Shown here piece by piece: positions 2,692-15,231 of a stretch of DNA of 15,816 nt (position 1 is its first letter; the number at the start of each line of letters is the position of its first letter). The DNA lies in IMG/VR virus record IMGVR_UViG_3300020020_000019; one strand, 5' to 3'. The notes below the pieces were generated by a model that saw only the letters and a list, made by a program, of their open reading frames with translations, ran no database searches and had not been told where the DNA came from. The position numbers and the translations under genes were made by a program. This DNA is from a virus.

Positions 2692-2692
2692 C

Positions 2693-4009: not shown

Positions 4010-4407
4010 TGGCATTCCCCGAACACGTCGCCCCCGACGAACTGATCGAGTCGGCGTGGGGCAACGCCGTCGTCGACGCCCTGTTCACCGTCGCCGTCGC
4101 CGCCGACATCAACGGGCAGACGAGGGAAGGGGGCCGGCTACGCATCCAAGCCGGCGTGATCACCGCGACGACCGACGTCAACGGTGACATCACCATCCCC
4201 CTCGGCGGCGCCGCCGCCTACGACGGCAACCCAGTGACCCTCATCATCCCGGCCACCCCGACTCAACCGTTGATGGTCACGGTACTGACGTCCAGCCCGG
4301 CCAGCGCGACGGCCCGTGTGTGGTGGGGGTCGGGCGCCGGCATCGGCACCCCGGTCGCCAATGGGACGTTCGCCTTTTTCTGGTTCGCGATCGGGCTACG
4401 ACCCTAG
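4009..4407 (+). CDS. Small minor tail / putative tail-tip or receptor-binding protein (132 aa)
   Basis: The ATG overlaps the upstream TGA (TGATG). High GC3. The sequence looks beta-rich (ITATTDVNGDITIPLGG...VTVLTSS). The call rests on position in the tail module only. Confidence 0.35.
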   Translation: MAFPEHVAPDELIESAWGNAVVDALFTVAVAADINGQTREGGRLRIQAGVITATTDVNGDITIPLGGAAAYDGNPVTLIIPATPTQPLMVTVLTSSPASATARVWWGSGAGIGTPVANGTFAFFWFAIGLRP

Positions 4408-4419
4408 GAGGTCCCCGCT

Positions 4420-4722
4420 ATGTCCTACACGACGATGAGCCGGGCCGCCGCCGACCCGGCGTTGACGGATCGCATCACCGCGGCCACCGTGCAGGAGGCG
4501 TGGAACAACCCGGCCGCCGCCGGCACCCTGTTCGGCGTCGACGTGCAAGCCTCGGCGGGCAACGCGATGCGGATGTGGTGGCCGGTGTGCATTGCCGCCG
4601 ATGTTGCTGCCGCCTACGCCTCGGCGCTCGCCGCCGGCAACCCGAACCCGGGCGGAGATGATGCCGTCGTCACCGACGGCATGATCCTCGCCAACGTGCA
4701 GGCGAAATGGCCGCCGGAATGA
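4420..4722 (+). CDS. Hypothetical protein (100 aa)
   Basis: It has the strongest Shine-Dalgarno in the window (AGGAGG at 4406-4411, 8 nt upstream of ATG 4420). High GC3. No recognisable motif. Confidence 0.6.
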   Translation: MSYTTMSRAAADPALTDRITAATVQEAWNNPAAAGTLFGVDVQASAGNAMRMWWPVCIAADVAAAYASALAAGNPNPGGDDAVVTDGMILANVQAKWPPE

Positions 4723-4856
4723 GCGACACCCCGTCCTCGCTGACCCCGGCCGACGCCGAACGGACCATGTACGAGGCCGCCCGCCGCCGCCGCCACGCCG
4801 CCGAGTTCGGCGATGTCGACGATGACGACGCCTACGACGCCGACGACCCGCCGTGA
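4719..4856 (+). CDS. Small acidic hypothetical protein (45 aa; MSDTPSSLTPADAERTMYEAARRRRHAAEFGDVDDDDAYDADDPP), absent from the supplied ORF track
   Basis: Hand translation. The start overlaps the upstream stop as ATGA and the stop overlaps the next start as GTGA. It fills an otherwise 130-nt gap and has high GC3. Confidence 0.5.
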   Translation: MSDTPSSLTPADAERTMYEAARRRRHAAEFGDVDDDDAYDADDPP

Positions 4857-5698
4857 GCCTGTTCCTGACCTGGCTGGCCGACGAGCTGCGCGCCGCCGGG
4901 CTAAACGTCGTCGAGTACTCGGGCTGGACGACCCGGGCCCGCTCGAGCGGCGGGTACGGCGCGGCCCCGTTGTGCGTCATGGAGCATCACACCGCCTCCC
5001 CGCCGTCGTGGGACGGCCAGCGGGACGCCGACTACTGCGCCGTCGGCGATCCCGACGCCCCGCTCTCGAACCTGTACATCGAACGATCGGGCCGGGTGTG
5101 GGTGCTCGCCGCCGGGGCGACGAACACGAACGGCAAAGGTTGGGCGATGACGTTCTCCCGGGGGACGGTGCCGACTGATGGGATGAATACCCGCGCCGTC
5201 GGGATCGAGTGCGGCAACAACGGGGTCGGCGAGGCGTGGCCGGTCGCCCAAGTGGACGCCCTCATCGCCGCGGCCAACACGGTCAACGGCCGGCTCGGCA
5301 ACGTGCCGGCCGACGTCGCCGGACACGTCCACTACACGAACCGCAAGATTGACCCGGCCACCGCCGCCGCGGTGCAGGGCGCCTGGCGGCCCCGGTCGAT
5401 CAACTCATCGGGGTCGTGGAATCTCGACGACATGCGCGCCGAGCACGTCCGCCGGGCCGCGGCCCCGGCCCCGACACCGGAACCTGAGGAGGACGAGGAC
5501 ATGGCGAAAGAGCTGCTGGTGCAGGGGATGCCGTCGGGATCGTTGCAGGTCGCCGACGCCCTGCTGACGTCGCGCCGGCCGATCTCCGGCGACGCCTACG
5601 GGGCCCTCATCAACACCGAGCAGTACGTCGCCGTGCAGTTGCCCGACGAGGATGTCGACCGCATCCCGTTCACCCCGCAACGCGACGTCGTCACCTAG
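4853..5698 (+). CDS. Endolysin, N-acetylmuramoyl-L-alanine amidase (Amidase_2/PGRP-like) with an uncharacterised C-terminal domain (281 aa)
   Basis: N-terminal LADELRAAGLNVVEYSGWTTRAR, VMEHHTASP, AVGIECGNNG and GHVHYTNRKIDP match the amidase_2 zinc-ligand layout. It lies immediately upstream of the holin. Confidence 0.8.
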   Translation: MSLFLTWLADELRAAGLNVVEYSGWTTRARSSGGYGAAPLCVMEHHTASPPSWDGQRDADYCAVGDPDAPLSNLYIERSGRVWVLAAGATNTNGKGWAMTFSRGTVPTDGMNTRAVGIECGNNGVGEAWPVAQVDALIAAANTVNGRLGNVPADVAGHVHYTNRKIDPATAAAVQGAWRPRSINSSGSWNLDDMRAEHVRRAAAPAPTPEPEEDEDMAKELLVQGMPSGSLQVADALLTSRRPISGDAYGALINTEQYVAVQLPDEDVDRIPFTPQRDVVT

Positions 5699-5702
5699 TC
5701 CG

Positions 5703-5957
5703 ATGCCCCGCCGGCCCTTCCCCGGCGCCGGGGTCCGCGATTGGGTCGCCCTCGTCCTGGCCCTCGGCATCGCCGTCGGGTTGAACGTGATCCTGCTCGC
5801 CGTGCTGTATGACGCCATCGCCTCGGCCGGGCCCGGGCTCAGTGAGAACGCCACGCAGATCATCACCGGCGCGTTCGGCGGGATCATCGGCGTGCTCGGG
5901 TCGTATCTCGGATTCCGCGCTGGCGAGAAACAGAACGACGAACGACCACCGCCGTGA
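5703..5957 (+). CDS. Holin, two transmembrane helices (84 aa)
   Basis: There are two hydrophobic helices (WVALVLALGIAVGLNVILLAVLY and ITGAFGGIIGVLGSYLGF) and a charged C-terminus (RAGEKQNDERPPP). It lies directly after the endolysin. Confidence 0.7.
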   Translation: MPRRPFPGAGVRDWVALVLALGIAVGLNVILLAVLYDAIASAGPGLSENATQIITGAFGGIIGVLGSYLGFRAGEKQNDERPPP

Positions 5958-5996
5958 TGCGACATCGGTGGTGGAGATTCCACGGCCGATGTCGCA
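5958..5996. terminator. Strong hairpin directly after the holin stop (11-bp + 5-bp stems)
   Basis: tgcgacatcgg-tg-gtgga-gat-tccac-gg-ccgatgtcgca. Both arms are perfectly complementary. It lies between convergent transcription units and has no U-tract. Confidence 0.5.
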
Positions 5997-6024
5997 ATTC
6001 GCGATGTGCTAACAGATCGCGAAT
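5997..6024. terminator. Second hairpin / 9-bp inverted repeat with 10-nt spacer (attcgcgat-gtgctaacag-atcgcgaat); terminator or recombinase core-site candidate
   Basis: A perfect 9-bp inverted repeat directly abuts the first hairpin. It lies between the + strand late operon and the - strand int unit. Confidence 0.4.
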
Positions 6025-6032
6025 CCACCTGG

Positions 6033-6134
6033 TCACGGCCACCAGCCCTGGCGATACATCCACTCGGCGAGGAGCACCCCGAGCGGCGGCGCGATCAACG
6101 CCACCAGGGTGCCGTAGTAGCGGAGTCGGCTCAT
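6033..6134 (-). CDS. Candidate 33-aa single-pass membrane peptide (MSRLRYYGTLVALIAPPLGVLLAEWMYRQGWWP), absent from the ORF track
   Basis: Hand translation of the reverse strand. It runs from ATG to TGA and about 31/33 codons end in G/C. It has a hydrophobic core with a Trp-rich end. It lies 40 nt downstream of int on the same strand. The RBS is weak. Confidence 0.35.
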   Translation of the reverse strand: MSRLRYYGTLVALIAPPLGVLLAEWMYRQGWWP

Positions 6135-6174
6135 GGCACTCGCGCTCTAAACAAAGTCAACGAACCCCTGGTCA

Positions 6175-7014
6175 TCACGCCGCCGGCAACTGCAGGGCGC
6201 GCGACGTCGCCGCCGTGCGCTCGGGGAGACAGGCCGTGTAGATCTGCGTCGTCGCCACCGAGGCGTGGCCGAGCAGGTCGCGCACCGCCAGCAGGTCGGC
6301 GCCGGGTACCTGCAGCGCCGCCGTCGCGCATCGGTGGCGTAGCTGATGTGCGGTCGTCGCGTAGCCCGCGGCGTGGATGGCCAGGTTGACCCGTTGCGAG
6401 ACCCGGTGGGCCAGCATCCGCCGCCCGGTCTGCCCGACGAACACGGCGCCGTCGCGCCGGCTCGAGGCCAGACGCAGCGCGGCGAGGGTGCGCGTCACGT
6501 CCGTTGACAGGCTGATCAGGCGTTCCTTGTCGCCCTTGCCGTTGACGATCACCGTTCCCGCGGCCAGATCGACGTCGCGCCAGTCGAGCCGTGAGCACTC
6601 GCAACACCGCAGGCCGGCGCACGACATCAACGCGAACAGGGCGCGCAGCTGGACGTCGTCGGTCTGCACCAGCCGGGCGATCTCCCGATCGGGTGCCGGC
6701 CGCGGCAGACGCGCCGGCACCTTTGGCCGGTCGACGAGCGTGGTCGGGTCGCCGTCGGCCAGGCCCTCGCGCTGCAACCACCGGTAGAACGCCCGCAACG
6801 CGACGAGCAGGGCGCGCGTCGAGCTCGCTGCCAGGCCGCGGTCGCGGGTCCACGCCTCGACGTCGCGGTAGGTCGCCGCCGCCGGGTCGGGGTGTCGACA
6901 CAGCCACTCCCCGGCCACCGCGAACCGCGGCCACACCGTGCGCGGCGCGAACCGGCCGGTCATGTACCGGCGGTATGCGTCGAGGTCGACGTCTGTCCCT
7001 CGATCGTGTGACAT
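6175..7014 (-). CDS. int: Tyrosine integrase, XerC/D-like (SAM-like core-binding domain + catalytic domain, no arm-binding domain)
   Basis: The catalytic signature is present: AGLRCCE (Arg), GKGDKER (Lys), HQLRHRCAT (His-x-x-Arg) and LGHASVATTQIYT (His, Tyr). Start chosen at ATG 7014 (MSHDRG...). The longer ATG 7053 start adds 13 codons with poor GC3, includes a rare TTA codon, and collides with the divergent gene. Confidence 0.85.
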   Translation of the reverse strand: MSHDRGTDVDLDAYRRYMTGRFAPRTVWPRFAVAGEWLCRHPDPAAATYRDVEAWTRDRGLAASSTRALLVALRAFYRWLQREGLADGDPTTLVDRPKVPARLPRPAPDREIARLVQTDDVQLRALFALMSCAGLRCCECSRLDWRDVDLAAGTVIVNGKGDKERLISLSTDVTRTLAALRLASSRRDGAVFVGQTGRRMLAHRVSQRVNLAIHAAGYATTAHQLRHRCATAALQVPGADLLAVRDLLGHASVATTQIYTACLPERTAATSRALQLPAA

Positions 7015-7066
7015 AGTGGGCACGGACTGTAACTGACTGGATCGAGACGACATGCATGTGATTAGA
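7015..7066. promoter_or_regulatory. Divergent int / early-operon control region with a TAGAAT -10-like hexamer (7063-7068) and the motif ATGTGATTA (7056-7064)
   Basis: This is the only non-coding DNA between the two divergent units. TAGAAT fits the actinobacterial TANNNT -10 form. A CATGCATG palindrome lies at 7051-7058. Confidence 0.4.
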
Positions 7067-7285
7067 ATGACATCGATGGAATCCCGACCTGACTACCTCG
7101 ACGTCGACCAAGTGATGGAGCTGCTGCACATCCGTTCGAAGACCACGCTGCACCGCTACCTCGGTGAAGGACTGCCCTCCCATCAGATCAGGCCGGGTGG
7201 CCGTCGCCTGTACGACCCCGTCGAAGTGCGTGCCTGGATCGAGTCTCGATGGAGTGAACGCAACGCAGATGACGGCGCCGCGTGA
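7067..7285 (+). CDS. Excisionase-family / MerR-like HTH DNA-binding protein (Xis or early regulator); start ambiguous (ATG 7052, 7067 or 7076)
   Basis: YLDVDQVMELLHIRSKTTLHRYLGEGLPSHQIRPGGRRLYDPVEVRAWIES matches the HTH_17 excisionase pattern (L..S..T..R......P......R.....D...W). It is divergent from int. Confidence 0.7.
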   Translation: MTSMESRPDYLDVDQVMELLHIRSKTTLHRYLGEGLPSHQIRPGGRRLYDPVEVRAWIESRWSERNADDGAA

Positions 7286-7449
7286 TCACGATCGACGTCG
7301 CCATCGCCAACGCCTACGACGCGCTCGGCGCCGCCGAACGCAATCTTGCCGCTGCCGCTGACGCGCTCCGGGCCGCGACCGAAGCGCTCGAGCTCGGCGG
7401 GGCCGCCGTCACCTACGCCCGTGGCCAGCTGCGCGAGATCGTGGAATGA
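7282..7449 (+). CDS. Small Ala-rich helical hypothetical protein (55 aa; VITIDVAIANAYDALGAAERNLAAAADALRAATEALELGGAAVTYARGQLREIVE), absent from the ORF track
   Basis: Hand translation. There is a GTGA overlap upstream and an ATGA overlap downstream. High GC3. Confidence 0.5.
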   Translation: MITIDVAIANAYDALGAAERNLAAAADALRAATEALELGGAAVTYARGQLREIVE

Positions 7450-7769
7450 GCGCCGTCAACCTGCGGGCCATGCAGTACGCCCGCACCGTCTGCATGGAGG
7501 CGCCCGACATGCGCATGGCGCCGCGGGCGCTGCTGCTACTGCTGTCCACCTACGCCGATCAGGCCGGCGTGTGCTGGCCGTCCGTTGGCACGCTCGCCAA
7601 CGTGCTCGGGCTGACCCCGGCGAACGTGCGCCGAGCTCGCCGGGACCTCGTCGGGCGCGGACTGATCGCGCTCGACGCCCGGCCCGGACACTCCTCGATC
7701 GTCCGCTTCCCGGTCGTCGCGCACACCCTCCGCGCCGTCCCCCGGGACGCCGACGAGGCCGCCGGATGA
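7446..7769 (+). CDS. Winged-helix / HTH_36-like DNA-binding protein (107 aa); candidate replication initiator or repressor
   Basis: PRALLLLLSTYADQAGVCWPSVGTLANVLGLTPANVRRARRDLVGRGLIAL resembles the PF13730-type helix-turn-helix domain seen in phage and plasmid replication or regulatory proteins (recognised from memory). Confidence 0.6.
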   Translation: MSAVNLRAMQYARTVCMEAPDMRMAPRALLLLLSTYADQAGVCWPSVGTLANVLGLTPANVRRARRDLVGRGLIALDARPGHSSIVRFPVVAHTLRAVPRDADEAAG

Positions 7770-7779
7770 CCCGCCGGGA

Positions 7780-7788
7780 TTGTCCACA
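7780..7788 (+). promoter_or_regulatory. Exact match to the high-GC actinobacterial DnaA-box consensus TTGTCCACA
   Basis: The sequence ttgtccaca lies 10 nt after the HTH_36-like gene stop and directly abuts the palindrome array. It is a single copy, so a chance match is possible. Confidence 0.35.
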
Positions 7789-7890
7789 CCCCGCGCGGTG
7801 GCGCGCGGGGTCGCGGCCCCTGACCCCGCGCGGTACCGCGCGGGGGGGGCGCGCGGCACCGCGCGGGGGGGGCGCGCGGTACCGCGCGCC
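7789..7890. repeat. Array of four GC-only palindromes (CCCCGCGCG-gtgg-CGCGCGGGG, then three CGCGCGG(T/C)ACCGCGCG) with two G8 spacers; includes two tandem 23-bp units
   Basis: The four elements lie at 7789-7810 (9-bp arms), 7824-7845 (perfect 22-bp palindrome), 7850-7865 (one central mismatch) and 7871-7890 (perfect 20-bp palindrome). Tandem units GGGGGGGGCGCGCGGYACCGCGC lie at 7842-7864 and 7865-7887. No credible ORF covers the region. Confidence 0.85.
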
Positions 7891-7922
7891 AGAACAAACC
7901 AATGAACAGACCAGTAGAACAA
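7891..7922. repeat. AT-richer segment with three GAACA direct repeats spaced 12-13 bp (7892, 7904, 7917)
   Basis: aGAACAaa / tGAACAga / aGAACAag. This is one of the AT-richest stretches of the window, adjacent to the GC palindromes. Confidence 0.5.
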
Positions 7923-7980
7923 GGGCTTTCATCCCGCTACGCGCGCCAGCGACGCCGCGACGATCGGTGAGCCTTTCGTC

Positions 7981-8190
7981 ATGACCGCTCGGGAACTGTT
8001 CGAGGAGCTCTGTCGCCTACACGACCGGCACGACCTCGGATTCGTTCGATACACCGACGCGCTGCGGATCGTCGGCGGCGCTCACATCACCGCGCAACGT
8101 CTGCTCCAGGAGCTCGTCGAGTCCGAGATGATCGTCTGGCAATCAAACGGGATGATCATCCCCATGCGACGAAAGGCCGAGAGTGCCTGA
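7981..8190 (+). CDS. Hypothetical early protein (69 aa), possibly winged-helix
   Basis: ATG-initiated ORF with coherent helical sequence (ITAQRLLQELVESEMIVWQSNGMIIP). GC is lower than in the structural genes. The stop TGA lies inside the first copy of the junction motif. Confidence 0.55.
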   Translation: MTARELFEELCRLHDRHDLGFVRYTDALRIVGGAHITAQRLLQELVESEMIVWQSNGMIIPMRRKAESA

Positions 8191-8461
8191 CGAACCGCTG
8201 TTCGTTTCCGATCCTGACCGCGACGTGACGATGGCGCTCTACACCGCGCTGTACGTAGACGAGGGTATGGCGACGGTGGCCGCTCGACGGGTGGCGGTCC
8301 GATGGTCGCGGCCGATCGCTGTCATCGGTGCGGGTGTTCACTCGATCGGCGCGTCACCGTTCAGCGGCGAGCGGGTGTGGGCGATGTTCGATCTGACCGA
8401 GGACGACACGGGCGAAGTACGTCGCCGGGCAATCGTCGTTGTGGAGTCGGGCAATGGCTGA
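8183..8461 (+). CDS. Hypothetical early protein (92 aa) starting M-P-D-E-P-L-F
   Basis: GTG 8183 is preceded by GAAAGG. There is an 8-nt overlap with the upstream gene (GTGCCTGA). The start context is identical to the next two genes. Confidence 0.55.
   Translation: MPDEPLFVSDPDRDVTMALYTALYVDEGMATVAARRVAVRWSRPIAVIGAGVHSIGASPFSGERVWAMFDLTEDDTGEVRRRAIVVVESGNG
8187..8203 (+). repeat. Gene-junction motif, copy 1: CTGACGAACCGCTGTTC
   Basis: Identical 17-mer to copy 2. It begins at codon 2 of the downstream gene and contains the upstream gene's stop. Confidence 0.9.
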
Positions 8462-8666
8462 CGAACCGCTGTTCAATTCCGGTGTGTTGCACCCTGAGCA
8501 CATAGCAATCGAGCCGCAGTCGATCGACGAGGCGCGGCTACAGATGTGCGCTCAGCTTCACCATGCGATGTACGGCGGGGTGTGGGCTCGACCAGAGTCA
8601 CCCGCCGTCATGTGGGCCGAGATGCTCGACCGCATCGACCGTGCCGCACGGCAGTTCCGCCGATGA
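8454..8666 (+). CDS. Hypothetical early protein (70 aa) starting M-A-D-E-P-L-F
   Basis: ATG 8454 has GGAG 7 nt upstream. There is an 8-nt overlap with the upstream gene (ATGGCTGA). Confidence 0.55.
   Translation: MADEPLFNSGVLHPEHIAIEPQSIDEARLQMCAQLHHAMYGGVWARPESPAVMWAEMLDRIDRAARQFRR
8458..8474 (+). repeat. Gene-junction motif, copy 2: CTGACGAACCGCTGTTC
   Basis: 17/17 identical to copy 1, with the same position relative to start and stop codons. Confidence 0.9.
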
Positions 8667-8806
8667 CTGACGAACCGCTGTCCATCAGCGCCGCGCTCGA
8701 GGTCGTCGACGCGGAGACCCTCGACCCGCTCGTCTGGCCCGATGAGGTCGCGGCGCTACGTGTGCTCGCCGCCGAAGTGCGGCGTCTACGGGAATCGGAG
8801 CAATGA
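8663..8806 (+). CDS. Hypothetical early protein (47 aa) starting M-T-D-E-P-L-S
   Basis: ATG 8663 overlaps the upstream stop (ATGA). The sequence is an amphipathic helix. GC3 drops over the last ~20 codons, where frame 0 (the next gene) has better GC3. Confidence 0.45.
   Translation: MTDEPLSISAALEVVDAETLDPLVWPDEVAALRVLAAEVRRLRESEQ
8667..8683 (+). repeat. Gene-junction motif, copy 3: CTGACGAACCGCTGTCC
   Basis: 16/17 identical to copies 1 and 2, again starting at codon 2 of a small ORF. Confidence 0.9.
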
Positions 8807-9074
8807 GTCCCGTTGCATCTGCATCGATCGCGCTAGCGTTCGATCCGTGGCCGGTCGTCCACCGCTCGCTCTCCCATCGCACGGGACCCGGGCCCGGTAC
8901 CAGTCCCGTCAAGGTGCCTGCCGGTGCCTGCCGTGCCGGCAGGCGAATGCGGGCTATCAGGCCGCCTATCGGTCGGGTGCCGTCCGCGAGACCTCGGCGG
9001 TCTCGGCCGATGGGCGCGGCGTACAGCTCACGCTCCCGACGCATGAGCACCACGTCATCCGCGCCGGGCGGTGA
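8742..9074 (+). CDS. Cysteine-motif (HGT..Y...C-x-C-x2-C) small protein, probable zinc-binding DNA-binding partner or N-terminal module of the HNH endonuclease; start uncertain (ATG 8742, GTG 8760 or GTG 8847)
   Basis: The frame contains SHGTRARYQSRQGACRCLPCRQANAGYQAAYR, a motif I recall as recurrent in actinophage HNH-associated and DNA-binding proteins. GC3 is better than in competing frames. The stop overlaps the HNH start (GTGA). Confidence 0.5.
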   Translation: MRSRRYVCSPPKCGVYGNRSNESRCICIDRASVRSVAGRPPLALPSHGTRARYQSRQGACRCLPCRQANAGYQAAYRSGAVRETSAVSADGRGVQLTLPTHEHHVIRAGR

Positions 9075-9331
9075 ACCCGTACCGCGACCCGGAGCACCGG
9101 GCCGCCGTGGCCGCCCTGCACCGGCATCCCGTCATCTGCCGGTGTGGGGCGACGGCCACGACGATCGATCACGTGCCGCCGCTGGCCCTGCACCGTCACC
9201 GCCGCGGTTCGGGGTGCTGTGTCGGTGTGCCGCGTTGCGCGCCGTGCAACTACGGGGCCGGGGCGCGCATCGCCGCGGTCCGTCGGCGCGCGTTCGCGCG
9301 TCGACGTCCGAACGCGTCGCGCGTCTGGTGA
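9071..9331 (+). CDS. HNH endonuclease (86 aa)
   Basis: CRCG...IDHVPPLALH...CAPCN gives the CxC / DH / CxxCN beta-beta-alpha-metal layout. It lies just upstream of the terminase genes, as in HK97-like cos phages. Confidence 0.75.
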   Translation: MNPYRDPEHRAAVAALHRHPVICRCGATATTIDHVPPLALHRHRRGSGCCVGVPRCAPCNYGAGARIAAVRRRAFARRRPNASRVW

Positions 9332-9345
9332 CGTCGCGGATTTTT
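9302..9345 (+). terminator. Candidate intrinsic terminator at the end of the early operon (7-bp outer stem cgacgtc/gacgtcg, inner acgcg-tcg-cgcgt hairpin, then T5 run at 9341-9345)
   Basis: Complementarity was checked by hand. The T5 run is one of very few T-runs in the window. The stem is modest and the loop is long. Confidence 0.3.
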
Positions 9346-9422
9346 GGGGCTCGTGGCGGGCACCGCCGCTCCCCCACCTGTCTCTCTCCGATGGGGGTCA
9401 TGACCCTCGAATATGTGATTAC
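9346..9422. promoter_or_regulatory. Structured non-coding region between HNH and small terminase; candidate cos / packaging-recognition and late control region
   Basis: Elements present: hairpin ccccca-(15 nt polypyrimidine loop)-tggggg at 9371-9397, a perfect 12-bp palindrome GGGTCATGACCC at 9395-9406, and the ATGTGATTA motif at 9413-9421. The position is typical of cos in HNH-dependent packaging systems. Confidence 0.4.
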
Positions 9423-9779
9423 ATGACCGGCCGCCGGCCCGGCCAGGCCCCGCTGTTCCCGCCGGATCCGCCCGGATCGCGCCGGATCGGCCGGGTTCGC
9501 CGTGGATGGGACGTGACCGTGCGAGCTCTGCGGGCGACGGGCCGGCTGGAGCCGTTCGACGAGGCCGTGATCCGTCTCGGCCGGGTCGTCGCCGATCAGG
9601 CCGACGCCATCGAGCACGACCCCGAGCAGTCGCCGTTCGTGCGCAACGCCCTGTACAAGACGATGCTGACGACGATCATCACCCTGCGCGACCAAACCCG
9701 ACCCGATGCTGACACTGCCTCCCTCGACGACCTGCTCGCCGCTCTGGTGCACCTCGAGGACGCCGGCCCGGCCGAGTGA
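9423..9779 (+). CDS. terS: Terminase small subunit (118 aa)
   Basis: ATG 9423. The sequence (VRALRATGRLEPFDEAVIRLGRVVADQADAIE...) resembles P27-family small terminases. It lies directly upstream of and overlaps the large terminase. Confidence 0.6.
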   Translation: MTGRRPGQAPLFPPDPPGSRRIGRVRRGWDVTVRALRATGRLEPFDEAVIRLGRVVADQADAIEHDPEQSPFVRNALYKTMLTTIITLRDQTRPDADTASLDDLLAALVHLEDAGPAE

Positions 9780-11124
9780 CGGCGCCCATGTCGCCGCGTT
9801 CGCCCGGGCCATCGGCCGCCCGCTGATCCCGTGGCAACGCGACGTCGCCGACCTGACCGGCGAGCGCGACCCGGCGACTGGTCTGCCCGCGTATTCAAGG
9901 GTGGTCTTGATTGCGCCGCGCCGGGCCGGCAAATCGGCGCTGATGCTGGCCCGCGCCCTGGCCACGATCCGCGCCCCGCACGGCCGGGCGTTCTACACCT
10001 CGGCGCATCGGGAGAACGCGGCGCGGATGTGGCGCGACGACTGGTTTCCGACCGTCGAACGTTCCGCCCTCGGCCCCTACACGCGCCTCGTCTACGGCAA
10101 CGGGTCCGAGACCATCGCCTACCGCAAGGGTCTCGGCGGGTCGACGTTCCGTCTCGTCGCCGCCAGCGGTGACGCCATCCGCGGCGCGGCGACGAACCTC
10201 GTCATCATCGACGAGGCCCGCGGGCTCAGTGTCGACGAGGGTGACGAGCTCGAGCGGGCCGTGTTCCCGACGCAGGCCACCGGGGCCGGCGGGCAGACGT
10301 GGATCGTGTCGAACGCCGGCACCGCGGCATCGGCATGGCTGGCCCGCTGGCGCGACCTCGGCCGCCAGGCCGTCGCCGAGGGACGCACGTCGCGGCTTGC
10401 CTACGTCGAGTACGCCGCCCCACCGGACGCTGACCCGGCCGACGAAGCGACCTGGTGGCGGGCCCATCCCGGGCTCGGCCATCACGTCAACCTCGACGCC
10501 TTGCGCGCCGATTACGAGGTCATGGCCCCGGACGCGTTCGCCTGCGAGTACCTCGGCTGGTGGCCCGAGACCCTCGTCGACACCGTTCTCGTCGACGCCT
10601 GGCTCGCCGGGGTCGCCGACGTCGCCCTCGTCGACCCGGTCGTGTTCGCCCTCGAGGTCGACGAGGACCGCACGACCGCCTCGATCGTCGCCGCCGGCAG
10701 CGGCGGGGACGACCGGGTCGTCGTCGAGCTCGTCGAGCACCGCCCTCATGGGCCGTGGGTCGGCCCGCGTCTCGTCGAGCTCGCCGAACGCTGGTCGCCG
10801 ATGGCCGTGGTGTGGGATGCCGGCGGCCCGGCCGGCGCCCTGGCCCCCGAGCTCGTCGAGGTCCCGACCCGCCTCGTCCCCTACCGCACCGCCGAGGTCA
10901 CCGCCGCCGCCGGCTGGTTCTACGACCGTGTCGTGTACACCGCCGATGTCGTGCACCGCGCCGATGTCGACCTCGACGGCGCGATTGCCGCCGCCCGGCG
11001 TCGTCGGGCCGGCGGCGCCTGGCTGTTCGACCGTCGCCAGCCCGGCGCCTGCCCGTTGATCGCGGCGACGATGGCCGTGTGGGCGCACCGCGACGCCACC
11101 CTCGGCCGTCCGAGCGTCACCTGA
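9706..11124 (+). CDS. terL: Terminase large subunit (472 aa)
   Basis: Walker A is present in VLIAPRRAGKSAL and Walker B in LVIIDEA, with a C-terminal nuclease-like region. ATG 9706 is the only canonical in-frame start upstream of Walker A, giving a 74-nt overlap with terS. Confidence 0.85.
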   Translation: MLTLPPSTTCSPLWCTSRTPARPSDGAHVAAFARAIGRPLIPWQRDVADLTGERDPATGLPAYSRVVLIAPRRAGKSALMLARALATIRAPHGRAFYTSAHRENAARMWRDDWFPTVERSALGPYTRLVYGNGSETIAYRKGLGGSTFRLVAASGDAIRGAATNLVIIDEARGLSVDEGDELERAVFPTQATGAGGQTWIVSNAGTAASAWLARWRDLGRQAVAEGRTSRLAYVEYAAPPDADPADEATWWRAHPGLGHHVNLDALRADYEVMAPDAFACEYLGWWPETLVDTVLVDAWLAGVADVALVDPVVFALEVDEDRTTASIVAAGSGGDDRVVVELVEHRPHGPWVGPRLVELAERWSPMAVVWDAGGPAGALAPELVEVPTRLVPYRTAEVTAAAGWFYDRVVYTADVVHRADVDLDGAIAAARRRRAGGAWLFDRRQPGACPLIAATMAVWAHRDATLGRPSVT

Positions 11125-11169
11125 CCCCGTAATCGGGGGGCCGCTGGCCGCTCTGTGGCCGCCAGAGCG
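11125..11169 (+). other. Two hairpins immediately after terL (ccccg-taat-cgggg at 11125-11138; cgctctg-tggccgc-cagagcg at 11149-11169)
   Basis: Perfect 5-bp and 7-bp stems were verified by hand. They form part of an unusual 150-nt non-coding gap in an otherwise tightly packed operon. Confidence 0.5.
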
Positions 11170-11274
11170 ACGAAACGGACCCCGCCTGGTACCTCAGTGC
11201 GGGCAAACCGGCTACGGGCCCCTGGTGACGCGTTATAGACGGCGCGGCGCGCGTTACATCACGGTTTGCGCCAG

Positions 11275-12456
11275 ATGGGCCGCCGTTCTGCCGCCCGCGC
11301 CAAGGCCGCCGAGGCCCGCGCCGCCGCCGATGGCAACCTCGGCGCCATCGAGCGGATCATCGCCGACGCTCAGGCCCGCCGCGAACGCCTCGGCGATCTG
11401 TCCCCGTTCGAGCTGCCGATCGTCGTCGCCTGCCGCCAGCTCGTCGCCGACACCGTGGCGCAGCTCCCGTTCGTCAACTTCCGCGGCAACCTGCCGACCG
11501 CGGAGCAACCGCCGATCGTGATCCGCCCCGATCCGTGGGAGCCGCGCTGGCAGACGATGCACCGTCTCGTCATGAACCTGACCGGCCCCGGCTACGTGTG
11601 GCTGATCCCGACCGCGTTCTACGCCGACGGTGTCACCCCGGCCGCCGTGCGTGTCGTCGACGCCGCCGAGGCCGCCGGCACGTTCGACCCGTCCGGCCGG
11701 CTCGAGCGGATCATCTGGCAGGGCAAGCGCTACGAGCCGGGTCCGACCGGCGCGGTGTGGGTCCCGTGGCGCGTCGAACGGGTCGGCACCCTCGGCTCGG
11801 GCCCGATCGGGTCGTGCGTCCGGGCCGTCGAGTACCTCGCCGCCCTGTGGCAGATGGCCGGATCATTCTGGGAGGCCGGGTTCCCGTCGATCGCCCTGGT
11901 CATCGAACAGGCCCTCTCGACGACGCAGAAACGGGAGGCCAAAGAAGAGATGCTCGGCGCGTTCGCCCGCCGGCACGAACCGGCCGTCGTCGACCGTGGC
12001 GGCCGCCTCGAGGCGATCGGATCGAACGCCGTCGACTCGCAGCTCGTCGAGTCGATCGAGGTCGCCAATGCCGAGGTCGCCCGAGCGTTCGGGGTCATGC
12101 CGTCGCTGGTCAACGTGCGCGCCGGGGACTCCCTCACCTACGCGACGACCGAGGCCGAACTGTCGAAGTGGCTCAAGCTCGGATTGGGCGCCTACCTGAT
12201 GCGCATCGAGGCCGGGTTCTCCGAGCTGCGCCCGCTCGGCCAGCATGTCCGCGCCGACACCTCGGCCTTGCTGCGCACCGACCTCAGCGCCCGCTACGGC
12301 GCCTACTCGGTGGCCCTCGGCCGCTGGCTGACCGTCGACGAGGTGCGCGCCGCTGAATCGTTGCGTCCGATGCCGGCCGGCACGTTCCCCGGCGAGCCGA
12401 CGTCGCCGGCCGTCACCCCGTCCCCGTTCCTCGACCCGTCAGGAGTACTCCCGTGA
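11275..12456 (+). CDS. Portal protein (393 aa; alternative TTG start at 11266)
   Basis: The size and the position between terminase and protease/capsid fit a portal. High GC3. The stop overlaps the next GTG start. The family was not confirmed by a named motif. Confidence 0.7.
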   Translation: MGRRSAARAKAAEARAAADGNLGAIERIIADAQARRERLGDLSPFELPIVVACRQLVADTVAQLPFVNFRGNLPTAEQPPIVIRPDPWEPRWQTMHRLVMNLTGPGYVWLIPTAFYADGVTPAAVRVVDAAEAAGTFDPSGRLERIIWQGKRYEPGPTGAVWVPWRVERVGTLGSGPIGSCVRAVEYLAALWQMAGSFWEAGFPSIALVIEQALSTTQKREAKEEMLGAFARRHEPAVVDRGGRLEAIGSNAVDSQLVESIEVANAEVARAFGVMPSLVNVRAGDSLTYATTEAELSKWLKLGLGAYLMRIEAGFSELRPLGQHVRADTSALLRTDLSARYGAYSVALGRWLTVDEVRAAESLRPMPAGTFPGEPTSPAVTPSPFLDPSGVLP

Positions 12457-14219
12457 CCGTCACCGTTCCCGCGTTCCGTTCGACCGCCACGATCGCCCCG
12501 GTGTGGCATGCCGGCCGCCGGGCCGCCGTGACCGCCGGCCCCGACGACCTGACCCTCGAGGCGTGCGTCGTGCCGTGGCACACCGCGGCCCGGGTCACCG
12601 ACGACGGCCGCACGTTCTACACCGAGACCTGGTCGCCCGGCTCCCTCGTCCCCGAGGACCGGGTCGTCATCTACGACGGCCATGTCCCCGGCGGTGGCGG
12701 GGACGGCCAGCTCAACTCGGACCGTCAACCGATCGGCCGGGCCGACACGTTCACCGAACGGCCCGACGGGCTGTATGCCACGCTGCGCCTGGCCAACACG
12801 TCACGCGGCCGTGACGTCTACGAGCTGGCCCGCGTCCTCGGTTTCGTCAACGTGTCCCTCGAGGCCGACGTCCCCGTCGGTGGCACCGGGACCGTGGCCC
12901 GCACCGCGGCGACCCCGTGTCCGCTGACCGGGATCGCCGTCGTCCTGCCGCCCGGTACCGGCGCCTTCCCCGGCGCCGTCGCCGCCGCCGGCCGGGCCGC
13001 CGGGGACGAGGACGAGACCGACGAGACCACCGACGACGAGACCACCGACGACGAGACCACCGACGAGACTGACGCCCCGGCCGGCCGGGCCGCCGTCGGC
13101 GAGCTCGTCCGCGCCGAGCTGGCCCGCTACGGGATGACCCCGGGCCGCCGCCCGTCCGGCCGCACCGCCGGACCGCTGGCCCGTTTCGCCAACTTCCGTG
13201 AGTTCGTCACCGCGGCCCGGGCCGCCGAGGGTGACCGGGCCGCCGAGCTGCGCACCGCGTTCGCCGCCGCCTACCAGCAATGGCGCGAGCTTGACCGGGT
13301 GGCCGCCACCGGCGTCGTCGGACGGGCCCTGTTGGATCAGGTCACCGCCGACAACCCGGGGCTGATGCCGCCGTCATGGCTGACCGAGGTGTTCGGCATC
13401 GTCGACCGGGGCCGCCCGTCGGTCACCGCCCTCGGCGGACCCCGCAACCCGGGCGACGCCGGCATGGATGTCTATTGGCCGTACTACGACGGCGACCTGC
13501 TGGCCATCGTCAAAGAGCAGACCCCGACCGAGAAGAGTCCGATCAACTCGGTCAAGGTCAGCTTCAAACGGGGCCAGGCCACGCTCGACACGTTCGCCGG
13601 CGGGTCCGATGTCAGCTACCAGCTGCAACGCCGCTCTTCGCCGTCGTACATGGCCCTCTATGACCGCATCCTGCAGATCGCCTACGGGCTGACCACCGAG
13701 GTCGCGTTCGCCACCGTCCTCTCCGCCGTCGACGCGACACCCGAGGCGTATGATCTGGCCGCCGACACCGACGGCTCCGCGTTCCGGGCCGTCCTGTTCG
13801 GCGCCTCGACCGAGGTCCGCAACGTCACCGGCGAACCGGCGTCGGTGGCCCTCGCCGCCACCGACGTGTTCATCGCCCTCGGCGGCGCCCCGTGGCTGTG
13901 GCCGCAGATGTACGGCACACAGAACACGGCCGGCACGGCGCAAGCCTCGACGCTGACCATCTCGGTGTCCGGGTTGACGATCACCGAGGCCCCGGGCCTG
14001 CCGGCCGGGACCCTCATCATCACCAACCCGGGCGCCGCGGCATGGTTCGAGGAGGGACCGTTCATCGTCACCGCCGAGGACATCGAGAAGCTCGGCACGA
14101 ACGTCGCGATTTGGGGGATGGGCACGGCCGGGGTGTTCCTGCCGGCCGGGGTCGTCGAGGTCACCGTCACTCTGCCCGCCCCGCTCGGCGCGGCGACCAA
14201 GCGTTCGGCCGCCAAGTAG
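12453..14219 (+). CDS. Prohead (HK97 S78-like) protease / scaffold-like linker / HK97-fold major capsid protein fusion (588 aa)
   Basis: AGGAG lies 7 nt upstream of GTG 12453. The N-terminal ~170 aa are protease-like (YDGHV...GLYATLRL...NVSLEA). An acidic repeat linker and a helical segment follow. The C-terminal ~330 aa are capsid-like. No separate protease or capsid gene is found elsewhere. Confidence 0.7.
   Translation: MTVTVPAFRSTATIAPVWHAGRRAAVTAGPDDLTLEACVVPWHTAARVTDDGRTFYTETWSPGSLVPEDRVVIYDGHVPGGGGDGQLNSDRQPIGRADTFTERPDGLYATLRLANTSRGRDVYELARVLGFVNVSLEADVPVGGTGTVARTAATPCPLTGIAVVLPPGTGAFPGAVAAAGRAAGDEDETDETTDDETTDDETTDETDAPAGRAAVGELVRAELARYGMTPGRRPSGRTAGPLARFANFREFVTAARAAEGDRAAELRTAFAAAYQQWRELDRVAATGVVGRALLDQVTADNPGLMPPSWLTEVFGIVDRGRPSVTALGGPRNPGDAGMDVYWPYYDGDLLAIVKEQTPTEKSPINSVKVSFKRGQATLDTFAGGSDVSYQLQRRSSPSYMALYDRILQIAYGLTTEVAFATVLSAVDATPEAYDLAADTDGSAFRAVLFGASTEVRNVTGEPASVALAATDVFIALGGAPWLWPQMYGTQNTAGTAQASTLTISVSGLTITEAPGLPAGTLIITNPGAAAWFEEGPFIVTAEDIEKLGTNVAIWGMGTAGVFLPAGVVEVTVTLPAPLGAATKRSAAK
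13020..13064 (+). repeat. Perfect 3x tandem 15-bp repeat GACGAGACCACCGAC, encoding (DETTD)x3, within the acidic linker (13005-13073)
   Basis: Three identical 15-mers were counted base by base, followed by a partial copy (gagac). The repeat is in-frame. Confidence 0.9.
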
Positions 14220-14224
14220 CGGCC

Positions 14225-14833
14225 GTGCCGGCGCCGGTCGTCACCGCGCTCGACCCGGACGGCGCCCGGGTCGGCGGACCGAACCTCACCTTGCGCGTCC
14301 GCGGTGCCGGGTTCGACCCGGCCGCCGTGATCGTGTTCGGTGGCGGTGACGAACCGACGACATGGGTCGCCGACGGCGAGGTGACGACGATCGTCCAACC
14401 CTCGACCGCGTCGGGCCCGGCCGAGGTGACGGTGACCGTCCGCAACGCGGACGCCACCGAGGCGCCGCCGTTGCTGTTCAGCTTCACCGTCGGTGACCCG
14501 GTGCCGCACTACGTCACCGCGACCGAGGTCCTCGAACGGCTCCGCCTCCCGGCCAACCATCCCGACGCCGCCTACGTGATCCGCTGTACCGCGGCAGCGA
14601 ACGAGCTCGTCGACGACGAGCTCGCCGTCGTCCTCGACGTCCCGTATCCGGAGTCGGTGTGGCGGGCCGCGCTCGGCGTGGCGATCCGCGTCTACCGCTT
14701 CAAGGACGCCGAGTCCGACGTCGCCAACGCCTGGTCCGACACCGGCGCGCTGCGGATCCCGCGGGACCCGCTGGCCGGGTACCGCGACCTGCTGACCCCG
14801 TGGTGCCACGGCTCGAAATGGGCGCCGGCGTGA
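14225..14833 (+). CDS. IPT/TIG (Ig-like) domain fused to a gp6-like head-tail connector/adaptor (202 aa)
   Basis: The N-terminus PVVTALDPDGARVGGPNLTLRVRGAGFDPAAVIVFGG...EVTVTVRN...LLFSFT fits the IPT/TIG pattern. The C-terminus TATEVLERLRLPANHPDAAYVIRCTAAANELVDDEL fits the Phage_connect_1 pattern. It is one continuous frame from GTG 14225. Confidence 0.6.
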   Translation: MPAPVVTALDPDGARVGGPNLTLRVRGAGFDPAAVIVFGGGDEPTTWVADGEVTTIVQPSTASGPAEVTVTVRNADATEAPPLLFSFTVGDPVPHYVTATEVLERLRLPANHPDAAYVIRCTAAANELVDDELAVVLDVPYPESVWRAALGVAIRVYRFKDAESDVANAWSDTGALRIPRDPLAGYRDLLTPWCHGSKWAPA

Positions 14834-15231
14834 GCATCACCGCCGAGGCCCGCCAGACCCTGGCCGCCGCCCTGACCGTGGCGGTGGCCCCGGTGCCGGT
14901 GTTCGCCTTCCGGCCGCTCGAGCTGGCGACGCCGTGCGTCTACCTCGATGTTGCCGGCCGCCGCGCCGCCGATGATGACGGGGCCCCGCTGATCGTCGTC
15001 ACGTTCCCCGTCGTCGCCGTCGTCGACGGCACCGATGAGGCGCAGATGGCCGCCCTCGACGAGCTCGGCGACCAGATCTGGGATGCCGCCGTCGCCCTCG
15101 AGGGGGAACCGGTGTCCGCCGTCGCCGACGACGTCGACGTCGGCGGGCCCCGGCTCCGCACCCTGAACACCGTCGTCGACGTCGTCGTCGCCCACCTGAC
15201 CCTCTGCGCTGAAAGTGAGACCGCCGCATGA
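14830..15231 (+). CDS. Neck protein, tail-terminator / head-closure candidate (133 aa)
   Basis: There is a GTGA overlap upstream and an ATGA overlap downstream. It lies between the connector and the major tail protein. No diagnostic motif was recognised. Confidence 0.4.
   Translation: MSITAEARQTLAAALTVAVAPVPVFAFRPLELATPCVYLDVAGRRAADDDGAPLIVVTFPVVAVVDGTDEAQMAALDELGDQIWDAAVALEGEPVSAVADDVDVGGPRLRTLNTVVDVVVAHLTLCAESETAA

Follow-up and report, generated by a model that had tools for sequence, protein, structure and literature searches.

The question raised by this locus is why several consecutive small phage genes with unrelated bodies begin with nearly the same nucleotides. The window analysed here, i.e., the whole stretch of 15,816 nucleotides, represents a complete genome (about 15.8 kb) of a high-GC, temperate soil phage population. 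A search with CTGACGAACCGCTGTTC on both strands, with up to three mismatches allowed, yields exactly three matches in the window, all on the + strand, at positions 8187-8203 and 8458-8474 (no mismatches) and 8667-8683 (one mismatch, TTC to TCC), compared with a chance expectation of 0.09 in 200 dinucleotide shuffles, none of which reached three. The first-pass annotation, which had regarded these three copies as far beyond chance and had detected no others by eye, is confirmed on both points. Each copy starts within codon 2 of a small ORF, as described there, albeit at the second rather than the first base of the codon, and the encoded proteins share the reported starts, namely V-P-D-E-P-L-F (GTG at 8183), M-A-D-E-P-L-F (ATG at 8454) and M-T-D-E-P-L-S (ATG at 8663). 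The upstream stops at the first two junctions indeed lie inside the motif (TGA at 8188-8190 and 8459-8461, an 8-nt overlap in the form NTGNCTGA), and the third junction is an ATGA overlap in which the ORF 8454-8666 ends. The GTG start at 8183, initially considered doubtful, agrees with independent public gene calls for the same contig, which give the same four genes of 69, 92, 70 and 47 aa.

The 17-mer is the best-conserved part of a longer junction module of about 27-40 nt that extends from the Shine-Dalgarno (SD) sequence to about codon 9. In its usual form, this module consists, in the 5' to 3' direction, of GGAG, 7-8 nt, ATG GCT GAC, a 12-nt core GAACCGCTGTYC (consensus GAA CCG CTG TYC) and two semi-conserved codons (x-Ser); an alternative leader class is exemplified by ATG CCG AGT GAA CGA ATC. 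The stop codon of the preceding gene is the +2-frame TGA just past the ATG (ATGGCTGA), and most copies place the end of the upstream ORF at +5 relative to the start. The frame is constant, and a single patch holds the stop of gene n as well as the ribosome-binding site (RBS), the start and the opening 7-9 codons of gene n+1. The core follows the start at a distance of 0-24 nt and forms part of the translated sequence, with a separate GGAG at the RBS position. Conservation drops to background outside about -20 to +18, and the conserved core is sharply bounded at 12 nt. Fifteen cassettes end in Asp-Gly, a dipeptide encoded by GATGGCTGA.

The small-gene block in the window, all on the + strand, opens with a 69-aa gene without a family match (7981-8190), the stop of which lies within junction module 1. 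Codons 5-7 of this gene (7993-8001) read GAA CTG TTC (E-L-F), that is, the core minus CCG; with both strands considered, GAACTGTTC at 7993 is the single GAACTGTYC of the window (0.11 expected), and this site is probably a fourth, decayed copy of the leader. The segment 8102-8203, which includes the 3' end of this gene and module 1, is 97% identical to contig L001, with the match ending at the last base of the core. Module 1 (8171-8209) contains a weak SD sequence GAAAGG (8171-8176), the GTG at 8183, the upstream TGA and the core GAACCGCTGTTC (8192-8203) followed by GTT TCC (8204-8209); it heads cassette A (8183-8461, 92 aa), an ORFan for which the only database match is the protein itself and no Pfam or PHROG family was found. 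Module 2 (8443-8480), with the SD sequence GGAG at 8443-8446, the ATG at 8454, the upstream TGA and the core at 8463-8474 followed by AAT TCC (8475-8480), heads cassette B (8454-8666, 70 aa), whose body family is found in other contigs behind different leaders. Module 3 (8663-8689) comprises the ATGA stop/start overlap at 8663-8666, no evident SD sequence, and the core variant GAACCGCTGTCC (8672-8683) followed by ATC AGC (8684-8689); it heads cassette C (8663-8806, 47 aa), the last of the array, which has a single homologue, P0008, with 85% identity. P0008 ends in ...ADG, the ending encoded where another module follows, and therefore the same cassette C is internal to an array elsewhere. The right boundary of the array (8795-8820) is formed by an ATGA junction (8803-8806) and the block CCGTTGCATCTGCATCG..., which is common to four array variants (the window, L011, L044 and L052) and at which 94-96% identity resumes despite the differing arrays. 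No promoter-like sites and no + strand terminator-like sites were detected between 6900 and 9800, where the single terminator-like match is on the - strand (8162-8149).

Many high-GC contigs, from viruses and from metagenomes, have the exact 17-mer or ATGRCTGACGAACCGCTGTYC where genes start. In metagenome searches, the same core was found at the head of no fewer than 63 small cassettes with a median length of 60 aa, the bodies of which represent more than 50 unrelated families with almost no family matches. The arrays include 2 to 11 copies (e.g., 9-11 in L010 and six each in L066 and L085), and in 49 of 55 distinct copies an in-frame ATG or GTG is found at most 8 codons upstream. Homologues of ORF B start with MADEPLF, MSERTEPLF, MNTEPL-N or MSDDPPIQ, and one retains MAD only, having lost the core; five body families are found behind different leader classes. 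Several low-GC IMG/VR contigs with GAACCGCTGTCCATCAGC (L064, L065, L068 and L070-L072) were rejected as chance matches, given that they carry single copies in one conserved gene of an unrelated phage family. A literature search for the motif or the peptide returned nothing relevant.

Within the core, Glu is encoded by GAA in 55/55 cases and Leu by CTG in 58/58, compared with 22% and 39%, respectively, in the bodies of the same cassettes, and the 12 variant forms of the core set are all non-synonymous (F/S/L/T/N, L/P, E/D/K/G/Q/V), in a data set that is biased by the retrieval of most loci through exact DNA matches; among the loci retrieved via protein homology, the cores are more decayed, and two variants are synonymous (GAG and CTC). 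Judging from these codons, the core is conserved at the level of DNA rather than that of the peptide. The earlier claim that the conservation resides at the nucleotide or junction level and does not reflect paralogy holds: the bodies lack similarity, the core codons are invariant, and ORF B bodies occur with different, decayed or missing leaders. The core variants also cluster by genome (P=0.00015 and P=0.0005), with significance reached only after the arrays found through protein homology were included, the first test on the DNA-selected set having given a non-significant P=0.10. For example, all six copies in L085 contain CCGCCG, and all copies in L011 end in TCC or ACC. The core copies evolve in concert within genomes.

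The ends of homology between contigs coincide with the module. The backbones of the window, L011, L044 and L052 are 93-96% identical outside the array and carry four different arrays, so that the motif flanks variable cassettes in relatives. At the 3' edge of the core, identity changes from 98% to 45% between the window and L001 and from 93% to 33% between L047 and L048; at the 5' edge, it changes from 35% to 100% between L053 and L066 and from 25% to 74% between L010 and L060. Contigs L047 and L060 have exactly one cassette in common, from one core to the next, and L053 contains two cassettes fused in frame at a core copy. Among the free ends of HSPs of at least 80 nt, 19/44 fall on a module in both partners; in 5000 randomisations, this number averaged 7.6 and never exceeded 18. 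The first-pass annotation had offered boundary or linker sequences for cassette exchange as one of its two explanations, and this reading gains support from the at least 63 unrelated cassettes headed by the motif in many contigs, from the four arrays in one backbone and from homology blocks that begin or end at the core far above chance. Class-I modules show 26-30 nt of perfect identity between contigs, which is at the minimal pairing segment of Red-beta (23-27 bp) and just under that of RecA (31-34 bp) (PMC3945230), whereas crossovers between different leader classes have only 12-18 nt of identity, below the published minimal pairing lengths. We infer that homology at the module causes the exchanges, as opposed to merely marking where viable joints survive.

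The explanation that we favour, and regard as moderately probable, is that the core belongs to a portable stop/start/leader patch in a hypervariable ORFan array, whose cassettes are swapped through short-homology recombination without losing their translational coupling. Each cassette would be bracketed by two patches, and recombination from patch to patch, between phages or within one array, would replace, insert, delete or fuse whole cassettes, with all products in frame and translationally coupled to the neighbouring gene, presumably through the stop/start overlap. The joints would be made by homology-dependent recombination, probably via a phage or host pathway of the single-strand-annealing or RecA type. 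The near-identity of the patches would be upheld by the exchange traffic itself, through concerted evolution and survival of exchange-competent cassettes, and the requirement for a working initiation region probably adds to it. The breakpoints could, in principle, also represent illegitimate joints that survive only where a working junction is recreated. The retention of this particular 12-mer in many phage lineages is not obviously accounted for by recombination alone, and a primary function, in translation or as the binding site of a reader, may underlie it. A further possibility is that the 12-nt core is the recognition site of a dedicated cassette-mobilising activity, either a phage or host enzyme or a Chi-like hotspot for host end-processing. 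We consider this quite unlikely and retain it because breakpoints are found at either edge of the core, whose length, where leader classes differ, does not suffice for classical homologous recombination, and because the core variants are lineage-specific. Its Chi-like form was rejected: the GAACCGC heptamer shows no excess outside the leaders (six copies, three of which are the leaders themselves, where 3.6 were expected). If a mobilisation site did exist, the arrays would be a phage counterpart of integrons, in which promoterless ORFans, possibly with counter-defence functions, are shuffled at a defined in-frame site and captured cassettes are expressed at once via translational coupling.

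The simplest alternative to the portable patch, that A, B and C are tandem paralogues with the shared start as a remnant of duplication, draws on the adjacency and small size of the three genes and their common first residues; it is almost certainly wrong. BLASTP comparison of the three proteins detects no similarity past the first 7-13 residues, in agreement with the original observation that nothing is shared beyond residue 7, and tandem paralogy is refuted at this level of sequence comparison. In addition, the sizes differ (92, 70 and 47 aa), none of the three matches a Pfam or PHROG family, the ORF B family is found elsewhere behind other leaders, the leader is common to more than 50 unrelated bodies, and neutral decay that erased the bodies would not have spared 12-21 nt. 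Selection could instead act on the leader as a functional N-terminal peptide, (D)-E-P-L-F/S-x-S, that serves as a targeting or processing signal or as a degron on unrelated proteins. All copies are in a single reading frame, the residue two past the core is mostly Ser, encoded by TCC and AGC, which are not interconvertible in one step, and the array is directly upstream of the packaging genes. The constant frame is, however, equally demanded under the recombination model, where a joint out of frame would inactivate the downstream gene, and the third codon positions are frozen while the replacements are radical (F/S/I/T/N/L, L/P, E/K/G/Q/V), the opposite of what peptide selection would produce. 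Moreover, homologues of ORF B keep the body with the leader decayed or missing, and structure prediction places the leader in a disordered segment outside the fold: the AlphaFold model of cassette B, a low-depth model, is a two-helix hairpin (H24-40, H50-69) in which residues 1-15, including the leader, have pLDDT below 50. A peptide function is, on this evidence, very unlikely.

The core might also be an operator for a sequence-specific regulator that acts on mRNA or DNA, such as a RegA-like repressor, the target of a RegB-like nuclease or a stoperator- or SAS-like site, with exchange as a by-product. One protein, as is the case for T4 RegA, may control many unrelated phage mRNAs through a shared sequence in the initiation region. 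The RegA sites are AU-rich and overlap the start codon, whereas the core described here is GC-rich and in most copies starts at least 9 nt past the start; no RegA-type family match was obtained among the scanned ORFs. The second explanation of the first-pass annotation, a RegA-like translational operator, is neither supported nor refuted by these results: a 12-nt block within the initiation region allows for a reader, whereas neither RNA structure, nor covariation, nor a shared candidate binder was found. More generally, an operator is consistent with conservation at the DNA or RNA level and not of the peptide, with a conserved block of sharply 12 nt inside the region covered by the initiating ribosome, with the presence of every copy on the coding strand and with the covariation of the core across the unrelated cassettes of one genome, as with a co-evolving reader. 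The same genome-wise pattern is exhibited by the subcluster-specific ESAS consensus sequences of Cluster K phages (PMC3203893). Against this interpretation, the motif-bearing contigs share structural genes alone and no small binding protein, the single-sequence z-scores (0.03-0.85) and the alifold value (-0.94 kcal/mol) indicate no conserved RNA structure or covariation, and Rfam gives no match. Furthermore, there is no antisense copy of the core elsewhere in the window, given that the reverse-strand matches coincide with the known sites owing to the partial palindrome in the core, and the motif marks only hypervariable ORFan cassettes, being absent from the genes at 7052, 7282 and 7446, which are conserved and belong to regulation and replication. 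We therefore view an operator as unlikely, although the least so among these alternatives. A specific version of a DNA site, a host LexA (SOS) box of the Gram-positive/actinobacterial type (CGAAC-N4-GTTCG) that would keep the cassettes silent in the lysogen and turn them on after DNA damage, is highly improbable. The resemblance consists of a 4+4 inverted repeat, GAAC-CGCT-GTTC, of the sequence CGAAC-CGCT-GTYCGA in many copies, which fits the Streptomyces consensus tCGAAC-N4-GNNCGa (PMC9380542), and of a perfect ACGAAC/GTTCGT palindrome in copy 1 of the window; actinobacterial hosts are also indicated by the Rpf-type transglycosylase domain of a related contig. GAAC-N4-GTTC is kept in about two thirds of the core copies, and copies with a following G also fit the wider consensus. 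However, the spacer at these sites is always CGCT or CGCC, which LexA does not need; about 30% of the copies have GTCC, and L011 (a close relative), L006 and L062 lack the full palindrome and yet keep the other 11 bases. The base that precedes the core is C in only 33/46 copies, the sites are intragenic at intervals of 150-300 nt and not at promoters, there is no independent LexA-type box elsewhere in these phages, e.g., at a promoter, and the relaxed consensus matches by chance several times per locus.

The portable patch that we propose is most closely related to the short conserved boundary ('linker') sequences that have been invoked to explain how lambdoid and P22-like phages exchange modules (Susskind & Botstein 1978; Clark et al. 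2001, cited in PMC3029335). In both cases, a short sequence is located at gene boundaries between unrelated modules, homology breakpoints fall on it, and general recombination at the patch is proposed. Here, in contrast, the patch is in coding sequence, as an in-frame leader that includes the upstream stop and the downstream start, and it is present at every array gene and in dozens of cassettes, so that it is the rule within the array. The PeSLs (promoter-early stem-loop cassettes) of T4-type phages, intergenic elements of about 100 bp with a sigma-70 promoter and a terminator stem-loop, have been proposed to yield more viable recombinants than random illegitimate recombination (PMC2839356, PMC4122927). 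Like the patch, they are repeated regulatory motifs that flank ORFans in hyperplastic regions where near-identical phages differ, and the expression signals travel with the gene; the module described here differs in being about 27-40 nt long and translational (SD sequence, start, stop and leader), without a promoter, a terminator or significant RNA structure.

The SAS of Cluster K mycobacteriophages is a 13-bp sequence, GGGATAGGAGCCC, that takes the place of the RBS, 3-7 bp ahead of the start codon, and SAS/ESAS have been suggested to act in initiation or to bind a factor (PMC3203893). SAS/ESAS are asymmetric short repeats in one orientation, at the translation starts of non-structural genes of different families, with a strong ATG preference and with the upstream stop sometimes within the repeat. 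The module copies analysed here likewise have one orientation, are confined to non-structural genes of different families and are ATG-biased. The core, however, is unrelated in sequence to GGGATAGGAGCCC, downstream of the start and translated, and a role in cassette exchange is not described for SAS in the available parts of PMC3203893. The T4 capsid-targeting sequence of internal proteins (PMC3012670) is similar in that highly diverse small proteins have only a short N-terminal leader in common; here, by contrast, the nucleotides are conserved and the amino acids vary radically. Integrons also consist of co-oriented arrays of small, unrelated, promoterless cassettes that are bounded by repeats and expressed from upstream. 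Integron cassettes carry an attC site at the 3' end and depend on an IntI integrase and attI. These arrays, in contrast, lack the attC-type imperfect inverted repeats of 57-141 bp, the repeat being 12 nt, 5', in frame and translated, and no recombinase was seen apart from a tyrosine integrase of the ordinary phage type.

Phage mosaicism has two competing explanations, exchange at short linkers and random illegitimate recombination followed by selection, and the linker idea has been weakened by the absence of such sequences from most boundaries (PMC3029335). With a patch of about 12-30 nt that brackets each array gene and carries dozens of independent end-points of exchange, the linker hypothesis becomes directly testable, and a near-identical module at the positions of gene swaps is rare direct evidence for this old idea of genome shuffling. 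The portable gene-start module is a new variation on the theme of boundary sequences: with the stop, RBS, start and leader in a single patch, any inserted cassette would be expressed, an arrangement that, by way of analogy, resembles engineered standardised translation-initiation elements. The cassettes represent a large pool of rapidly exchanged ORFans, and such loci often hold anti-defence or host-takeover genes; the motif provides a simple handle for collecting them from metagenomes.

With respect to the phages themselves, no near or distant match for the cassette region was found among cultured phages, and a 38-nt module query against these gave only chance-level matches. The TerL protein is only about 30% identical to those of Arthrobacter and Gordonia phages. 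The core is found in none of 24 other loci with related TerL (29-73% identity), a result that says little because many of these loci do not extend over the early region. The scan of genomes for a host detected the array only in L040, a 4.2-kb contig that is identical to the early region of L011 and is binned to a Gemmatimonadales MAG; the remaining four matches are single matches in unrelated taxa. A Gemmatimonadales host was rejected given that binning is unreliable for so short a contig and that the Rpf-type domain points elsewhere, namely to Actinobacteria, which are probably the hosts of this phage population. Most of the contigs are short metagenome fragments, and no tRNA or attP clues were found. 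The tyrosine integrase in the window, assigned to the general Phage_integrase family only and associated with prophage integration, is the single recombinase gene recognised there. The motif-bearing contigs belong to at least two structural lineages. In the first-pass annotation, the junctions were labelled as those of early genes, a label that derives from position only; on this reading, the cassette genes would be expressed early.

A search of both strands of the window, allowing up to three mismatches, gave exactly three matches to CTGACGAACCGCTGTTC, all on the + strand, at 8187 and 8458 (both exact) and 8667 (one mismatch); dinucleotide shuffles give an expectation of 0.09, and three copies were reached in 0 of 200 shuffles. 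The first-pass annotation had placed the three copies of this 17-mer at the same positions, and translation from GTG 8183, ATG 8454 and ATG 8663 (V-P-D-E-P-L-F, M-A-D-E-P-L-F and M-T-D-E-P-L-S, respectively) reproduces its reading frames, with the TGA of the motif serving as the stop codon of the upstream gene at the first two junctions and an ATGA overlap at the third. Public gene calls on identical contigs match four small genes (69, 92, 70 and 47 aa), the last three of which are headed by the motif (ORF A, 8183-8461; ORF B, 8454-8666; ORF C, 8663-8806). BLASTP found no similarity among these three proteins past the first residues, and the comparative evidence also supports the earlier conclusion that they are not paralogs. 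The complete junction patches, here called modules, occupy 8171-8209, 8443-8480 and 8663-8689 on the + strand. The gene upstream of the three starts at 7981 (M-T-A-R-E-L-F) and contains, at codons 5-7 (7993-8001), GAACTGTTC (E-L-F), that is, the best-conserved 12-nt core of the motif (GAA CCG CTG TYC) without its CCG codon; given that this string is unique in the window, against 0.11 expected, it is probably a decayed fourth leader copy. In the small-terminase-like gene (9423-9779), which starts M-T-G-R-R-P-G-Q-A-P-L-F, codons 10-12 read CCGCTGTTC (9450), an in-frame match to the last nine bases of the core. The window has no further CCGCTGTYC apart from the cores themselves; the related contig L011 shows this feature too, and it could be a relic leader or a coincidence.

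The conserved block extends beyond the 17-mer. The class I leader consists of GGAG, a spacer of 7-8 nt and ATG GCT GAC followed by the core, and the other leader classes have only the core in common with it; they include ATG CCG AGT GAA CGA ATC (MPSERI), ATG CCT GAG CGC GAT GTT (MPERDV), MSN, and ...GGA ATG, where the core comes immediately after the start. The two codons 3' of the core are mostly GAT TCC, ATC AGC or AAC AGC (x-Ser), and conservation falls to background at +18. Every leader class has a +2-frame stop right after the ATG (ATGGCTGA, ATGCCTGA, ATGAGTGA), so that a single patch holds the stop of one gene together with the ribosome-binding site, start and leader of the next. In most module copies the upstream ORF terminates at this stop just 3' of the ATG and, accordingly, 15 cassettes (small genes headed by a module) end in Asp-Gly, encoded by GATGGCTGA.

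The first-pass annotation had proposed looking for the motif in relatives, and it was found there at the starts of varied cassettes. A scan of IMG/VR detected the 17-mer in high-GC contigs, again after the start codon, with four exact copies in L010 and two in L002. Degenerate scans identified arrays of cassettes: L010 packs at least 9 copies into 1.5 kb, and there are 4 copies in L011/L005, 6 in L066, 5 in L051 and 4-5 in L047. A metagenome scan added 15 short contigs, mostly with 2-5 copies. The core GAACCGCTGTTC, with at most one mismatch, is present in 55 distinct copies in high-GC loci, 49 of which have an in-frame ATG or GTG at most 8 codons upstream. Six IMG/VR contigs of 43-45% G+C (L064, L065, L068, L070, L071 and L072) contain GAACCGCTGTCCATCAGC once each, inside the conserved ...IPGSR(I/T)EPLSIS... 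segment of one gene family of unrelated phages; these were treated as a chance match multiplied by a common gene family.

Clustering sorts the protein bodies beyond the leaders into over 50 families, including 47 singletons; they have essentially no family matches, and five body families are found behind different leader classes. ORF A is an ORFan, and ORF C has one homologue, the C-terminus of which (...ADG) means that in its own array it is followed by a further module. The body of ORF B (...EPQTIDEARLQMCAQLH...) is conserved in four homologues, and three of these have differing heads (MSERTEPLF, MNTEPL-N and MSDDPPIQ). The fourth (146-337 of L077; MADPTEMRYLS...) was called without a leader, and its DNA keeps ATGGCTGAC, 27 nt upstream in frame, with the core lost; the publicly called start probably lies downstream of the true one, and this leader probably lacks only the core. 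In L053, a core copy on the - strand (GAACCGCCGTTC, ~6520-6615) has no start codon and lies midway in a longer ORF, the downstream half of which is a stand-alone cassette in L066 (8135-8305); this ORF looks like two cassettes that have been fused in frame at the core.

Comparison of related genomes supports the cassette exchange that had been proposed from the window alone, both through differing arrays in one backbone and through breakpoints at the core. L011 (IMG/VR, 15,560 nt) matches the window at 94% identity over the tail genes and from 8795 on, whereas its early region and its array are different; L044 and L052 carry two further arrays in the same backbone (94-96%), and all four sequences regain identity at the ATGA junction at 8803. 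At base level, identity between the window and L001 is 98% upstream of the module and 45% after it, and between L047 and L048 it changes from 93% to 33%; conversely, it rises from 35% to 100% in L053/L066, from the first base of the core, and from 25% to 74% in L010/L060, from the core. L047 and L060 have exactly one cassette in common, from core to next core. Among the ends of HSPs of at least 80 nt that are not contig ends and lie inside arrays in both partners, 19 of 44 fall within -25 to +20 of the core in both sequences (null mean 7.6, maximum 18 in 5000 randomisations). Clustering of core variants by genome is not significant in the DNA-selected set (P=0.10); once arrays found via protein homology or a variant pattern are added, clustering is strong at both variable positions (P=0.00015 and P=0.0005), so that unrelated cassettes of one genome share its local core version. 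For example, CCGCCG accounts for 6/6 cores in L085, 3/3 in L077 and 4/6 in L066, and all L011 cores are TCC or ACC.

The simplest account, which we consider somewhat better than an even bet, is that the module is a common homology patch for cassette exchange. Cassettes would be swapped at homologous module patches, and the in-frame, self-contained stop/RBS/start design would keep the recombinants expressed. We infer recombination itself, as well as translational coupling and the 'early' timing of these genes. Class I modules from different contigs are perfectly identical over 26-30 nt, which is near the minimal pairing segment reported for Red-beta (23-27 bp) and just below that for RecA (31-34 bp) (PMC3945230). 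Joints between leader classes have just 12-18 nt of identity, which either weakens the homology-patch model or hints at some different mechanism.

The leader could instead be a functional N-terminal peptide, which we regard as very unlikely. The constant reading frame and the serine after the core, encoded by both TCC and AGC, could fit such a role, but a recombination joint equally needs a constant frame because out-of-frame joints would be lethal to the downstream gene. In an unbiased six-frame search at the protein level for EPL[FS], all start-proximal cases use GAA CCG CTG T[T/C]C; different codons are found in three internal matches, apparently due to chance, at other loci. Among 63 cassettes, the core Glu is GAA in 55/55 and the core Leu CTG in 58/58, compared with 22% and 39% in the bodies of the same cassettes, and all core variants change the amino acid (TTC to TCC, CTC, ACC or AAC; CTG to CCG; GAA to GAT, AAA, GGA, CAA or GTT). 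Loci reached via protein homology, that is, without selection for the DNA motif, add ATC, CCGCCG and two synonymous variants (GAG and CTC), so the DNA-level constraint on the core is strong, not absolute, and is exaggerated by DNA-based sampling. From an alignment of five sequences, AlphaFold models ORF B as a two-helix hairpin (model pLDDT 70.7), with residues 1-15 outside it at pLDDT below 50.

The first-pass annotation also considered a translational operator for a RegA-like repressor, an unlikely reading although less so than the peptide. RNA structure z-scores are 0.03-0.85, the consensus fold has 4 pairs (-0.94 kcal/mol) and shows no covariation, Rfam gave no match, and no binding protein is common to the motif-bearing contigs. 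Inside the array there is no promoter-like or + strand terminator-like site, and the single terminator-like hit lies on the - strand (8162-8149). A LexA box is also very unlikely: the core reads GAAC-N4-GTTC, and the Streptomyces consensus tCGAAC-N4-GNNCGa (PMC9380542) accommodates many of its copies, but all GAAC-N4-GTTC sites in these phages have the same spacer, no other LexA-type sites are present in them, and some genomes have GTCC forms only.

The module resembles the PeSL cassettes of T4-type phages, where ORFans are bordered and shuffled by means of a repeated regulatory unit (PMC2839356); however, the module is translational and about 3-fold shorter than the PeSL unit. The Start-Associated Sequences of Cluster K (PMC3203893) are similar in position, orientation and gene class, whereas their sequence is different and the module lies downstream of the start and is translated. 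No description of the motif itself was found in the literature searched.

The window (71.8% G+C) is a whole contig of ~15.8 kb for which there are independent assemblies from several samples (ENA, Logan, JGI). Comparison of 1-15816 with L011, L073 and L074 suggests that the phage is temperate, siphovirus-like and very small, and that the window is its complete genome in circularly permuted form. Three related contigs (L011, L061 and L062) span 14.7-15.6 kb, which suggests that phages of this unusually small size with an integrase form a family. There is no close cultured phage: megablast gave no match, and TerL is ~30% identical to those of Arthrobacter and Gordonia phages. An Rpf-type transglycosylase domain in the related contig L069 (9-323) hints at actinobacterial hosts. 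L040 (DATHDT010000338.1, 4194 nt), which is identical to the L011 early region including three leader copies, is binned in a Gemmatimonadales MAG, a placement that may be a binning artefact.

The gene order starts with tail genes and an Amidase_2 lysin, followed by a tyrosine integrase that points leftward (6175-7053) and two HTH genes, the first Xis-like (HTH_17) and the second replication-initiator-like (HTH_36, 7446-7769). A 210-nt gap rich in G+C palindromes then precedes the four small genes (7981-8806), after which come an unassigned stretch with an HNH-like ORF and the small-terminase-like gene, TerL, portal and capsid. In the non-coding gap, a 16-bp G+C palindrome, CGCGCGGYRCCGCGCG, occurs four times at 7789-7890, twice in perfect form (CGCGCGGTACCGCGCG, at 7827 and 7873), with G runs in between; the gap could be an origin/iteron region, a set of operators, or terminator hairpins preceding the small genes. 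The ~600 nt at 8806-9423, which may include the cos/pac region, are left without annotation by public gene callers. This stretch contains an 86-aa ORF (9071-9331, GC3 0.85) whose Cys/His pattern is HNH-like; the ORF clusters with the N-terminal portion of a longer one, of 584 aa, adjoining the terminase region in L069. The codon composition of the long ORF 8803-9426 is non-coding-like, yet where four relatives differ by indels at its start, the lengths are all divisible by three.
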